Assembly (NCBI GenBank): GCA_951406725.2
Contig: OX597842.1
Coordinates: forward strand, 33,356,001-33,420,000
DNA from: Octopus vulgaris
Taxonomy: Eukaryota
DNA length: 64,000 nt
Reading direction: 5' to 3'
Position numbers and translations under genes: made by a program. Below are positions 1,221-63,012 of the stretch, one piece after another. Under the pieces are notes generated by a model that had not been told where the DNA came from, searched no databases, and worked only from the letters and a program-made list of their open reading frames with translations. The number at the start of each line of letters is the position of its first letter. Within the stretch, counting starts at the first letter, position 1.

Positions 1221-3909
1221 CACCATCACCATCATCATCATCGCCATTAGCATAGCAACCATCATCATTACCATCATCATCATCATCATCATCATCATCA
1301 TCATCAACGTCATCACTATATTCTACACTGAATCTAACTAATTCGCCCTCCTCATTCTTTGACTCCATCTTGTCCCCTTTTTCTTCTCCCTCTCCTTGTG
1401 CCTACCTACAACCCCCTCGCCCCCTAGCATCCATTGACACGCATCACTGAACACACGTACATTGAACAGAAGTGATCAAACAGAAATTGGCGGGAGCCGA
1501 CGACGACGAAGACAACAACAACAAGCACAACTCTAAAAATACATATGATGACGATGATGATGATGATGATGATGATGATGATGATGATGATGATGAGGAT
1601 GATGATGATGATGATGATGATTATGATGATGATGGTGGTGGTGGTGATGTTGATTAGAATGATGATGATGATGTTGAGGATGATGATGATGATGATGATG
1701 ATGATAATAATAATAATAATAGTAATGATGATGATGATGATGATGATGTTGATGATGGTGATGATGGTGATGATGATGATGATGATGATGTTGGTGGTGG
1801 TTGTGATGTTGATTATAATGATGATGATGATGATGACGATGATGATGACGATGATGATGACGATGATGATGATGACGATGATGATGACGATGATGATGAC
1901 GATGATGATGACGACGATGATGATGACGATGATGATGATGATGATGATGATGGTATCAAGAGCAGCCAAAAACAAATAAAAAACAAATAAACAAACTAAA
2001 TAAATGTAAAGGGTTCTTTTTCCCCTTCCAGTTCCGTCTTCGCACTTTCGCTCTGTCGCCTTCCCCACCCGCGCTGTATCCTTCCCTGTTTTTTCCTCTC
2101 CTTTCTTTCTCTCCATCCCATTTCTCAGTTTCCAGTCCATTTTTTTTTTATATTCTGTCGCATCCTTTTGCGATCTATCCCTTCTCTCTCTCTCTCTCTC
2201 TCTCTCTCTCTCTCTCTCTCTCTCTCTTTCTCTCTCTCTCTCTCCCCCATCACCCTTGCCTTATTCTCCATCACCAAGAACCCTACACGAATTCCTTTCT
2301 ACACACTACTCTTTTACTCTTTTACGCTTTTACTTGTTTCAGTCAGTTGACTGCGGCCATGCTGGAGCACCGCCTTTTATAGTCGAGCAAATCGACCCCG
2401 GGACTTATTCTTTTGTAAGCCCAGTACTTATTCTATCGGTCTCTTTTGCCGAACCGCTAAGTGACAGGGACGTAAACACACCAACATCGGTTGTCAAGCA
2501 ATGCTAGGGGGACAAACACAGACACACAAACATACATGCATACACACACACACACACACACACACACACACACACACACACACATATATATATATATATA
2601 TATATATAAACAATTATCGCCAAGCTAATATGGTAGTCCATAAATATAAGACTAAAGCTGCCGTTGATTAGCTCCAAGAGGTCATTGCCTCTAGCTAGCT
2701 ATATAACACACGCGCCTGTGTCCATATATATATATTGAAGAACCACAATTACTACTACTTCCTGTCCTGCCAACATGCTGAATTAAACCACACAACACAT
2801 GCTCTTAATCCCTTTGGATCTTAATACCTCAAGGTAATTTTTTCGTGAACAATCATAAAACTCAAGATACACAACGAACTCACAATGTATCGGAGTACTT
2901 ATTTTTTAATTTTTGTACATTTTTATCATTATTCTTTTGCAAAAAACAATACAATTTTCTTTTTTCCCCTTTCTAATTTTTAAAAAAACTTTTTAAAACA
3001 TAAATATTCTTGACAAGTCATACAATGACGAAAACCGGTTGAATAAATATATATTTATATTTTTTATCAATTTCTCATTTTATTATAATTTTCTTTCATT
3101 TGAGCATTCTGCATTTTTAAAAAATTTTTTCCTTACTTATCATTTCTCCACGTGCGGTCAACACAACCCCACCATTTATTGATCTATATATATATATATA
3201 TATATATATATATATATATATATCGTACCGCTAAATTTATTATGCAGTTACAGTACGTCCGAATAAAATACAAGATCGTCAGCGCTTTGCAAAGCCTTTG
3301 ATCTTTATGGCTGTCTATGTCTGGTCATTACCCGACCTAGGGCTAAAGAGCAGTAACAACGCCGGCAGTAGCAAACTCACACAGACTGACCAAGAGCGAG
3401 ATGATGACGAGAACTGGACAATAACAACATCATTGATAGCAACTACTACGATTACTACTACTACTACTACTACTACTACTACTACTACTACTACTACTAC
3501 TACTACTGCAGGGGCGACGGGAGTGATACAAAGAACAGTAATAATGTATGGCGGGTCATGTGAAAGAACAGGCGCTATGGCGTTCATAACATCTCGTTAA
3601 GAGAATAACACAAGGAAGTGGAGAATGAGAAGGGGGCTGTGTTGGTTGCAGGAGGTGCCATAATGGTAATGGTGGTGGTGGTGGTGGCGGCGGCGGCGGT
3701 CGGAGAAAGTGACGTAAGTTGAGGTCAGTAAAACGTAGGTGGAAACCGAACCGGCGGAAAAGTTGGTTAGCGATATTATATATATATATATATATATATG
3801 TATGTATGTATGTATGTATGTATGTATGTATGTATCTATCTATCTATATATCCATCCATTATACATATATATATATATATATATATATATATATATACTA
3901 TATATATAC

Positions 3910-4315
3910 TTTACTCTTTTACTCTTTTACTTGTTTCAGTCATTTGACTGCGGCCATGCTGGAGCACCGCCTTTAGTCGAGCAAATCGACCCCGCGACTT
4001 ATTCTTTGTAAGCCCAGTACTTATTCTAGCGGTCTCTTTTGCCGAACCGCTAAGTGACGGGGACGTAAACACACCAGCATCGGTTGTCAAGCAATGCTAG
4101 GGGGACAAACACAGACACACAAACATATACACACACACTAATATATGTACATATATACGACAGGCTTCTTTCAGTTTCCGTCTACCAAATCCACTCACAA
4201 GGTATTGGTCGGCCCGAGGCTATAGCAGAAGACACTTGCCCAAGATGCCACGCAGTGGGACTGAACCCGAACCATGTGGTTGGTAGACAAGCTACTTACC
4301 ACACAGCCACTCCTG
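3910..4315 (-). mobile_element. Dominant SINE, full-length
   Basis: Reverse complement of the same head, microsatellite and tail architecture. Confidence 0.9.
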
Positions 4316-4679
4316 ATATATATATATATATATATATATATATATATATATATATATTGATAGAAATGGTACAACAAAAGAATGAAAGAGACCTCGATAT
4401 TATGTAAATAGACGAATTTATATGTAAATGTAATATGTGAGCGTTTTTTTCCGATGGCCGGATAACTGAAGAGATGGCGGCGTGGATTTCCACCTCGGCA
4501 TCCGGAACTCGGAGTTTTATCATGGCTACCGAATCAATATTTTCATATATTACATTTACTTTCTGCTTGACACTTGGTGGGAGTCGGCTAGTCGATTGAA
4601 TCGACCCCAGTATTCGACTGGTACTTATTTTATCGATTCCGAAGGATGAACCGCAAAGGCTACCTGGGCGGAATTTGAA

Positions 4680-5087
4680 CTAGAAATCATTTTAAAAAAC
4701 TGCCATTCAAACCGAAAAGACCCAAATATCTTACAAACTATAGCATTTTCTCAATAAAGCGAAGAGAAAAAGATGTTTTATAAACACATTCTACCAGTAT
4801 ACGAAGTTTAAAATGTTTTAGTTAGCTAGAAATTATGTTAAAAAACTGCCGTTCAAACCGAAAAGATCGCAGAATGTTTTCACCTCAATAGACGTCATTG
4901 ATTGGTTGAAATTGCAGAAATTGAAGAAGAAAAAAACAACAAATATCTTACAAACTATAGAATTTTCTCAATAAAGCCAAGAGAAAAAGATGTTTTATAA
5001 ACACATTCTACCAGTATACGAAGTTTAAAATGTTTTAGTTACCTAGAAATTATGTTAAAAACTGCCGGTCAAACCGAAAAGATTCCA
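4680..5087 (-). mobile_element. Tandem truncated copies of the 27.6-28.0 kb MITE end
   Basis: Three occurrences of AAAACTGCCRKTCAAACCGAAAAGA. 4871-5087 is the reverse complement of about 27612-27830. Confidence 0.75.
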
Positions 5088-60612: not shown

Positions 60613-61037
60613 GGCTGTGTGGTAAGTAGCTTGCTAACCAACCTCATGGTTCCGGGTTCAGTCCTACTGCGTGGCATCTTGGACAAGTGTCTTCTACTAT
60701 AGCCCCGGGCCGACCAATGCCTTGTGAGTGGATTTGGTAGACGGAAACTGAAAGAAGCCTGTCGTATATATGTACATATATATATATATATATATGTATG
60801 TGTGTGTGTGTGTATGTGTTTGTGTGTCTGTGTTTGTCCCCCTAGCATTGCTTGACAACCGATGCTGGTGTGTTTATGTCCCCGTCAATTAGCGGTTCGG
60901 CAAAAGATACCGATAGGATAAGTACTGGGCTTACAAAGAATAAGTCCCGGGGTCGATATGCTCGACTAAAGGCGGTGCTCCAGCATGGCCACAGTCAAAA
61001 TGACTGAAACAAGTAAACGAGTCAAGAGTAAAAGAGA
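60613..61037 (+). mobile_element. Dominant SINE, near full-length. Further partial or old copies at about 663-980, 2305-2530, 20030-20398, 26395-26490, 42968-43345, 46970-47165, 57880-58080, 61635-61755
   Basis: Same head, internal microsatellite and (TAAAAGAG)-like tail. Confidence 0.88.
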
Positions 61038-62924
61038 ATACTTTTAGTATTTTCATCATCATCATCATCATCATCATCCTCATGGTTTATTAACCCCTGC
61101 CCCACTTACAGCAATAACCCCGTATGAAAAAAATCATTCCCGTTTGCATCAAATGGGACACTAAAAAAAGTGAAGTGATGCAGTAACATTGCAGCTTTGA
61201 CATCTGCATCGATTTTTGTGCAACAGTTAGACGCACCGCCAGGTTTACACATGCTAGTCATTAGCGGCACCACCTTCTGTGTAATGGAGGGAAATTAGGG
61301 GTGGAAGGTGTAGGTAGGTGTCTTAGAAGAGGGCTGGTTGTGTTTAAAAAGGGAAAGGTGTTTATGTGACAGGCACACACCCCCACACTGTCACCAGCCA
61401 CCGCTGCAGCTCCCTCGTCACCTCTTTGATAGCTTTTATTCTGTATATTTAGTAGGTTATAGATGGTGTTTGTTTCGATGTAAAATGGTTTCATCGTTTC
61501 GTAGCGCTGTTCTCTGATGCTGATGCTGCTGATTGTGGTGATGTTGAATTTAAGTATGTTCACTTAGGAGCTAAGAGAATGTATATTTATGTGTGTGTGT
61601 GTAAACTTGTATATATATACACACATATACATACTCTCTTTCACCCTTTTACTTGTTTCAGTCATTTGACTGCGGCCATGCTGGAGCACCGCCTTTAGTC
61701 GAGCAAATCGATCCCAAGACTTATTCTTTGTAAGCCTAGCACTTACTCTATCGGTGTCTTTATATATATCGGTTTCTTTATATACATATATATATATATA
61801 TATATATATATACCAAAGTTTACCAAAGTTTGCCGAAACTATGCATAGTCCAGAGATGAAAGGGGTAAACGTTTTTATTTCTCTTTCAATTTCAGAATTA
61901 TAACTATTAGTGGTTTGAGTTTGGCTGCTCTTTCTAGTGAGTCGAATGTCCTATTATGGCCATTCCTTATATTTTTGAATATATATATATATATAAATAA
62001 TAAATATATATATATGTAGAGAGAGAGAGAGAGAGAGAGAGAGAGAGAGAGAGAGAGAGAAGACATTATAGAGGCGGGTTGAGTGGATAGATGGAAAAGC
62101 AGATAGGAAGATACAAAGATGAGTGGATAAGATAAAAAGGAAGAGCGATAGGAAGGGAGAGAAATGGAGGGGAGAGGAAATGTCTGATTGCTAAAGTTTG
62201 TCCGTCTTACACAATCTTCAGTCAGAGAGGCAGGGATTTCCTTCCGATAACATGGCGATCTGGAGAGAGAATTAATTCTTAACATACGATGCACAAACTA
62301 CGTCTGTAGATACAGTGTCAGACATATGTATGTGGTATGTGTGTGTATGTAGCTGGGGGGAGTATACTCACATGTATGTGTGTACATGCATGTGCGTATG
62401 TATATTTTCATGCACGTGTGTATGCACCCGCAGTGAGAATCAAATACGCACACACAAAGGCATATACAGTGTGTGTGTGTGTAGAAAGTGAGAGACAGAG
62501 AGAGAGAGAGAGCTAAATAGATGAATAGATAGATAGATAGATAGATAGATAGATAGATAGAGAGAGAGAGAGATAGATAGATAGATAGATAGATAGATAG
62601 AGACAGAGAGAGAGAGATATAGAGATAGATAGATAGATAAAGAGATAGAGATAGAGATAGATAGATAGATAGATAGATAGATAGATAGATAGATAGATAG
62701 ATAGATAGATAGATAGATAGATACAATGATATGTCCAAAAACTGGCACTCAGTAGGTTAAGGCGAGGGTTCCACTTGATCTGATCAACGGAAAAGCCTGG
62801 TCATGAAATTATCGTGCAAGAGGCTGACTTATGGACAACCCTGTATGTATATATGCACACACACACACACACACACACACACACACACACACACACGTAT
62901 ATATATATATATATATATATATAA

Positions 62925-63012
62925 TCTGCAACTCAGAGTCTCCCGTTCCGCTCGTCGAACAGTTTAGATTAAACTGTCCCACGAACGGGAACGTGAAACT
63001 CTGAGTACCAGA
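62925..63012. mobile_element. Decayed fold-back element related to 25642-25798, hammerhead-like
   Basis: Right arm AAACTGT-CCCACGA-ACG GGAA CGT-GAAAC TCTGA GTA-CCAG aligns with the 25.7 kb motif. The left arm is its degenerate reverse complement. It follows (TA)n. Confidence 0.6.

Follow-up and report, generated by a model that had tools for sequence, protein, structure and literature searches.

Why does a single stretch of the octopus genome that contains part of the gene Pax6 carry eleven short motifs resembling hammerhead ribozymes (HHRs), and do these motifs have anything to do with the gene? The stretch, called the window below, comprises 64,000 nucleotides of Octopus vulgaris contig OX597842.1 (positions 33,356,001 to 33,420,000; G000:C29:33356001-33420000 of the 2.8-Gb genome); it has a GC content of 36%, and (TA)n is abundant. 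A preliminary description, made from its letters alone, had listed minimal type I HHR motifs at 3005, 12097, 18686, 23087, 24993, 25670, 27350, 28099, 46441 and 62971 and a half motif at 61835. It had suggested that they were either remnants of the pseudo-long terminal repeats (pLTRs) of Penelope-like elements (PLEs) or non-autonomous ribozyme elements, inside introns of Pax6.

Our analysis shows that the sites are 5'-truncated PLE ends in (TA)n, an already described kind, and that the motifs are unrelated to Pax6 function. We consider it probable that they are insertions of at least seven PLE families, each with the hammerhead of its element; their shortness is likely due to reverse transcription that begins just downstream of the ribozyme and ends at the RNA start just upstream of it.

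Hammerhead motifs and their cores

All eleven coordinates show the hammerhead grammar or, at 61835, only its 3' half (GAAA, palindromic helix III and the cleavage triplet), in agreement with the preliminary description. Our descriptor matched the window six times, at five insertions, and had no match in 3.84 Mb of shuffled sequence (60 dinucleotide block-shuffles), so that the expected excess over shuffled DNA was indeed found; because the descriptor had been tuned on the window motifs, this result demonstrates non-randomness and not sensitivity. A strict version requiring an intact first pair of helix II missed two of the families, C and D. Exact patterns of the families at 24993 (C), 25670 (D) and 23087 (B) matched the genome 2,396, 4,867 and 5,638 times, respectively, and reversed control patterns for these three families gave no genome matches. 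The best 150 of 760 matches in an Rfam scan were microsatellite-driven miRNA models, with no hammerhead family among them.

The canonical core (CUGANGA...GAAA...NUH) is present in the consensus of families C and D, where the 10.1-11.1 position is unpaired, and absent from families A (A6U), B (U4C) and G (extra A). The A6U core was found at 12097, at 46441 and in all 45 family A copies, the U4C core at 23087 and in 39 of 43 family B copies; 30 of the former copies were best matches to an A6U query and 30 of the latter were found by a U4C pattern, and copies from random regions concur. Family G, seen at 3005, combines a U3-A8 core with an additional A in the GAAA tract at 20 of 20 loci. Natural hammerhead variants at A6 and U4 are reported to have low activity (Perreault 2011). 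The anticipated helix covariation was observed: pair 1.4 of helix I is C-G in 38 of 45 family A copies and G-C in 39 of 43 family B copies, while pairs 1.1-1.3 are paired in 88-100%, all of these figures counting copies and not independent events. In family C, the palindromic helix III forms a stable 4-bp stem and is able to fold as a monomer.

Most copies in the window are variant or decayed, and no site is a head-to-tail tandem; no HHR site lay in a tandem array, either among the 150 of 257 Tandem Repeats Finder rows listed or in the site contexts.

One more common HHR family, which is absent from the window, has a long helix II, a palindromic helix III and both canonical and U4C cores (L196, L203, L209, L223, L176, L032, L067).

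Penelope-like parents of the motif families

Parents with reverse transcriptase (RT) and GIY-YIG open reading frames (ORFs) were found for four families (A, C, D and G), which substantiates the earlier suggestion of PLE pLTR or 3'-end remnants keeping the ribozyme segment. As stated before, there is no PLE ORF within the 64-kb window. The family C parent has an ORF with RWR, DKT, CxCX5C and GIY-YIG motifs that starts about 175 nt after the HHR core, and its pLTR arrangement, with the tail running into the ORF leader, recurs at 19 of 19 other loci. Inverted pairs of family D enclose a second Hydra-type ORF, with 35-45% TBLASTN identity to that of family C. In family A, a Neptune-type ORF lies upstream and is clear at five of 25 loci; the parent ORFs with a CX2-5CxxC linker before GIY-YIG are at L388, L386, L389 and L380. 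Family G has 1,658 candidates, 19 other loci being 98-99% identical; its relatives carry an upstream ORF 52-61% identical to a CxxC-linker PLE ORF (L113), and the pLTR arrangement is seen at three of 20 loci. Families C and D are assigned to the Hydra clade, by the motifs read in the family C ORFs and by the similarity of the family D ORF to them, and families A and G are assigned by motifs to the Neptune type. Family B, for which we found 373 candidates for longer copies, is the sister of family A, judging from its helix II and 3' tract.

The 3' ends of the copies are fixed and lie in (TA)n. Fifty one of 64 copies from random regions had (TA)5 or more within 150 nt, as compared with 27% of random positions. 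In the window, too, most sites end in (TA)n, as had been claimed, the exceptions being 28099, without flanking (TA)n, and 18686, which ends in (CA)n. The alternative of dedicated non-autonomous ribozyme elements was not upheld: the short forms are the shortest insertions of autonomous families, in which arms range from 60 bp to 1.7 kb.

Three further observations concern PLE families of this genome. Nests are formed by different PLE families inserted in one another's (TA)n tails (L014, L030, L060, L066, L070, L337, L372). The 3' untranslated region (UTR) of family C exceeds 1 kb and is mostly (CA)/(TA)-rich low-complexity sequence (L151-L167), which means that microsatellite-like DNA is spread by the element itself. 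Finally, a Neptune-type PLE family of very high abundance (L091-L120; L014:2006-2944), with 24,501 first-look candidates and open frames of up to about 850 aa, has in its 3' UTR a hammerhead of the U3-A8 type, in which helix II is 2 bp long and helix III is the palindrome CCGG.

Head-to-head hairpins of families C and D

The sites at 24993, 25670 and 62971 are palindromes with the motif on both strands, a feature missing from the preliminary description. The first two of them (24853-25050, family C, and 25571-25798, family D) recur in the genome as whole units at 97-99% identity. In 39 family C and 32 family D pairs the short arm ends 65-70 nt ahead of the end of the long arm; the second arm is thus an inverted 5'-truncated copy, and the tail is one-sided. 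Among position-ordered matches of the two families, inverted partners are 8 nt to 10 kb apart, hence the mini-hairpins are the shortest class of normal insertions.

The position of the turn is sharply limited in family C. We counted 775 hairpins with at most 30 nt between the cores, which turn at the first base of helix I; 26 that turn 2 to about 17 nt further upstream, some of them counted in the 775; and 21 whose turn lies no more than about 15 nt from the predicted cleavage site, the proportion being approximate since the three patterns are not equally long, with 30 to 34 fixed bases. Among the first 50 listed of the 775 hairpins, none reads into the base that precedes +1, the first base of helix I, though an equally good palindrome would result. 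Truncation at the cleavage site was rejected; few turns lie near it, and no peak of insertion junctions was seen there. A looser 24-base pattern found 3,990 family C arms; thus about two fifths of them are in mini-hairpins. Family D has 867 exact-pattern hairpins. In family B, none of 30 position-ordered copies forms a hairpin, and at most one extends past the 5' limit.

The centres of C and D hairpins vary among copies. Among the first 50 listed in family C, a three-base loop is the commonest centre (15 hairpins), and 12 centres are symmetric. The two arms agree with each other: a subfamily variant is common to both arms in 38 of 39 family C pairs (17 discordant pairs expected if the arms were independent) and in 31 of 32 family D pairs (14.7 expected). 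Perfect palindromes with arms of 0.55-1.7 kb were found four times (L157, L166, L337, L342). The varied centres, the concordant arms and these long palindromes favour hairpins that form during insertion.

Promoter-like sequences lie at or above the limit. In the family C parent, the start of a TATA box precedes the first base of helix I by 29 nt. The turn limit of family D falls on an initiator-like word that fits the initiator consensus, and most A and B copies have their 5' end at a TCA word, which lies 75-95 nt upstream of the core. In C and D, the HHR fold costs 75-76 kcal/mol relative to the hairpin, but in the family C parent RNA begun at +1 it is within 1.7 kcal/mol of the minimum. Two other readings of the limit were considered. 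A splice acceptor is less likely, as family D centres read through it; as for a cap-derived extra G at the limit, fold-back loops and template slippage account for the same letters.

Proposed mechanism and alternative explanations

The proposed sequence of events is as follows. The element endonuclease would nick a (TA)n target. The RNA would start at the pLTR promoter, represented by the TATA box at -29 in family C and by the initiator-like word at the limit in families D, A and B. Reverse transcription would begin internally, about 150 nt into the RNA, and copy uncleaved RNA up to its capped start. In the Hydra families, the cDNA end would then fold back on a 4-base palindrome and be copied again. 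Stubs would retain the ribozyme because it lies between the RNA start site and the RT start. The fold-back and the uncleaved template are steps that we infer.

Several observations weigh against this reading, in addition to the limited precision of the turn counts. Pfam support is below curated cut-offs (GIY-YIG with E about 0.006-0.007, RVT_1 with E of 2e-4 and nothing relevant for the Hydra ORF), so that the clade calls rest on motifs, and no ORF was reached for families B, E, F and H. Rare private variants are confined to one arm (15 in family C and nine in family D, none in both arms), hence the near-identical sets give no support for per-insertion copying. Most of 29 long inverted insertions examined have large spacers rather than tight loops. 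The RNA start site is deduced from sequence only, there is no clear TATA box in family D and none in A and B, and the base preceding +1 in C and D reads YAG, resembling a splice acceptor.

The main rival reading is twin priming. Here both target strands would be nicked by a dimer of the PLE protein, and two RNAs of one source would each yield a cDNA, one per RT start site; both cDNAs would run to the RNA start and be joined via the 4-base palindrome. In Anolis, both strands are cleaved and extended by the PLE protein, two RT start sites bracket the tail and a dimer is predicted (Frangieh et al. 2024, PMC11167929), and such a process accounts for the one-sided tail, for the symmetric centres and for the many long inverted pairs with large spacers. 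However, the perfect palindromes with 0.55-1.7 kb arms and tight turns would require two independent truncations at one point, and the commonest family C centre is a three-base loop; we regard twin priming as unlikely, yet deserving of attention. Less probable still is that the 190- and 230-bp palindromes are non-autonomous master elements, similar to SINEs or MITEs, that are copied whole. Recurrence of whole units with fixed outer ends agrees with such elements, and family B acts as a fixed 200-bp unit, but there are many different centres, the arms are concordant over several subfamilies, arm lengths are continuous, the ends are asymmetric and no link to a transposase was seen.

It could also be supposed that active ribozymes were kept at Pax6 through an effect on its RNA, as six sites are intronic and the Pax6-sense arm at 25708 has a canonical core. 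The density of the motifs at the genome average (see below) argues against such co-option, as does the state of the sense-strand copies, which are A6U, A6G, decayed or sequestered in a hairpin; moreover, the copies of families C, D and G match dispersed ones at 98-100% identity and are hence young. Co-option is already largely refuted, and we assign it a very small probability. Truncated insertion, with reverse transcription running from an internal start to the start of an uncleaved RNA, is the reading retained below.

Motif density and the Pax6 gene

To estimate density, we counted HHR-region homologs in a leave-one-out manner in 80 random 10-kb stretches (800 kb) and in 80 kb of neighbouring DNA. 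There were seven in the window, 64 in the random set and three in the neighbouring DNA. The number expected in the window is 5.1 when scaled to its length (P=0.26) and 10 when scaled to its (TA)n tracts, so a special link to the Pax6 locus was not supported. A first family count of 12 in the window was discarded, as the queries themselves came from it. Extrapolation gives about 2x10^5 such fragments per genome. The descriptor found 29 matches in the random 800 kb, ten of them with a canonical core, which extrapolates to about 35,000 canonical-core motifs genome-wide. With regard to Pax6, the finding is thus ordinary, as about five stubs of this kind are to be expected in every 64 kb of the genome.

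Pax6 is transcribed from the minus strand of the window. Its paired-box exon (26509-26861) has 99-100% identity to cephalopod Pax6 proteins, and the following coding exon is at about 21955-22170, both on the minus strand; the next exon lies about 50 kb past the window start. The intron preceding the homeodomain exon exceeds 72 kb (from 21955 in the window to G000:C29:33305534). One contig extends 311 nt beyond the 5' end of the paired exon into sequence that was not found within 26862-27250, which implies an upstream exon; neither TBLASTN nor contigs placed it. The intronic location given in the preliminary description is consequently certain for six sites, while those at 27350, 28099, 46441, 61835 and 62971 are 5' of the paired-box exon.

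The arm at 25708 is the sole intact motif on the Pax6 sense strand. It pairs with the other arm in a 75-bp hairpin, which is favoured over its HHR fold by 76 kcal/mol. The stubs would be passive by-products that do not cleave Pax6 pre-mRNA, and by their predicted folding the hairpins would form double-stranded RNA instead of cleaving.

Individual sites in the window

The family G site (2736-3184, plus strand) is the 5'-truncated 3' end of a Neptune-type PLE, with an HHR-like motif at 3005-3045 and a (TA)19 end. Family A, also a Neptune-type 3' end, is represented by copies at 12012-12225 (minus strand; CUGUAGA core at 12128-12122, (TA)38 end) and 46363-46569 (plus strand; CUGUAGA core at 46446), the latter beginning at the recurrent 5' limit of the family and having (TA)n on both sides. 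A sister copy at 18599-18784 (minus strand) has a canonical core at 18717, mutated helices I and III and a (CA)n end. A twelfth site, missing from the preliminary description, is a degenerate family A-like fragment at 58280-58373 (plus strand). The family B copy of about 200 bp (23009-23212, plus strand) has a CCGACGA core at 23091 and ends in (TA)n.

Both head-to-head palindromes of the Hydra clade have (TA)n on both sides, the long arm on the minus strand and the short arm on the plus strand. In the family C palindrome (24853-25050), the cores are at 24982 (minus strand, A6G) and 24993 (plus strand, canonical), the turn is at 24985-24990 and the tail is 65 nt long; in that of family D, the second Hydra-clade PLE (25571-25798), the cores are at 25708 (minus strand, canonical) and 25732 (plus strand, U4A) and the tail has about 70 nt. 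An old degenerate palindrome related to family D (62923-63050, both strands) has both cores mutated.

The remaining sites are old or fragmentary. Like the sister copy of family A, those at 27350 and 28099 combine a canonical core with broken helices. The family E copy (27293-27438, minus strand; core at 27386) has decayed helices I and II, a (TA)n end and three relatives at 72-74% identity. The low-copy family F fragment (28099-28197, plus strand; core at 28107), with a decayed helix II and a palindromic CCGG helix III, occurs in two other genomic places. The family H fragment (61813-61979, plus strand), which holds the half motif, is flanked by (TA)n tracts.

Other repeats in the window include a tandem repeat with a 107-bp unit at 13821-14820, 54257-54662 and about 58380-58510, abutted by the twelfth site, its second array being inverted and about 40 kb off; a tandem repeat with a 121-bp unit at 5550-6855 (10.8 copies, 95% identity); and tandem copies of a tRNA-like SINE, presumably the octopus OK SINE, at 28256-28578, 30893-31471, 10118-10398 and 17409-17706, often linked via (TA)n.

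Comparison with known systems

Minimal type I HHRs occur in the pLTRs of metazoan PLEs, and most of them are solo copies that derive from truncated elements (Cervera and de la Pena 2014, PMC4209133). The octopus motifs resemble them in type I topology, the extra base after A9, the palindromic helix III and the U3-A8 variant, and differ in having family-wide A6U and U4C cores. Opposite-strand pairs are 100-700 bp apart in that study, whereas back-to-back pairs are about 8 nt apart here; our number of canonical-core motifs exceeds the 4,000-9,000 reported there, the descriptors being different. Octopus was not found in the text or the searchable supplement of that study.

Families C and D share with Hydra-clade PLEs, as characterized by Craig et al. 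(2021, PMC8557442), the DKT and RW(K/R) motifs, a CxCX5C linker, absence of CCHH, a C-terminal GIY-YIG and an HHR, as well as (TA)n targeting, an inverted 5'-truncated copy and a one-sided tail. Their ORFs and HHRs differ from those of Hydra-1_Obim, another octopus Hydra family with an HHR; their tails are longer (65-70 as opposed to 30-40 nt), and the hot spot of turns at helix I is not described in the available text of that paper. The Hydra element preceding Hydra-1_Obim in its supplement, by file order probably from a coral, has an HHR that agrees with that of family D (25690-25712) fully in helix I and almost fully in helix III, which suggests deep conservation within the Hydra clade. Families A and G, assigned by motifs, resemble Neptune-clade PLEs in the same paper by the CX2-5CxxC linker, the DKG motif and the bias to microsatellites, and differ in that variant HHR cores are fixed family-wide.

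The Anolis element Poseidon PAc has internal RT initiation near the ORF start, a tail and uncleaved RNA as the main template (Frangieh et al. 2024, PMC11167929). An AT-rich target and a tail are common to both systems, as would be the internal RT start and the uncleaved template proposed here; in Poseidon PAc, in contrast, the ORF starts inside the HHR, inverted insertion is unexplained and the 5' limit is unmapped. Penelope pLTRs of Adineta vaga similarly have palindromes at inverted junctions, for which self-priming was proposed, and a TATA box with an initiator in the pLTR (Arkhipova et al. 2013, PMC3846280), but the self-priming proposed there is on antisense RNA and based on a few dozen copies, while fold-back of cDNA at a sharp limit of sense RNA is deduced here from hundreds. 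Non-LTR retrozymes (Li et al. 2026, 10.64898/2026.07.22.740005) are likewise small, non-coding, PLE-derived and equipped with type I HHRs; they form head-to-tail tandem arrays, whereas octopus sites are solo or head-to-head. A 2026 repeat annotation of O. vulgaris reports 31 recently active PLE families, with no occurrence of "hammerhead" in its main text (PMC13282606). We found no octopus hammerhead survey and no hot spot of turns at helix I in the literature searched, the scope of which stopped short of Repbase, Dfam, Arkhipova 2006 and several supplements; the families described here may already be catalogued in these sources or in supplements to the O. vulgaris annotation.

Significance

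The value of these observations is for three questions of PLE biology: how the second strand is made, how inverted insertions arise and what the hammerhead does. The limit, defined to the base pair by hundreds of dated junctions, indicates the RNA start rather than the cleavage site, and two families with variant cores reached thousands of copies; both results suggest that cleavage is not what makes the template. The new part is the junction statistics of the C and D hairpins, which provide a testable handle on the PLE mechanism.

We tentatively propose, as a possibility somewhat short of an even chance, that the hammerhead marks the exact start of the transcript in Hydra-clade PLEs, and that the mini-hairpins are a fossil "strong-stop" product running from the internal RT start to the cap, similar to retroviral minus-strand strong-stop DNA. 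If so, three features of an unsolved retrotransposition cycle could be mapped from these hairpins, namely the promoter, the RT start and the second-strand step, and the ribozyme would be a 5'-decapping switch. Cephalopod introns would then have received thousands of hairpins that form perfect double-stranded RNA and could be subject to A-to-I editing.

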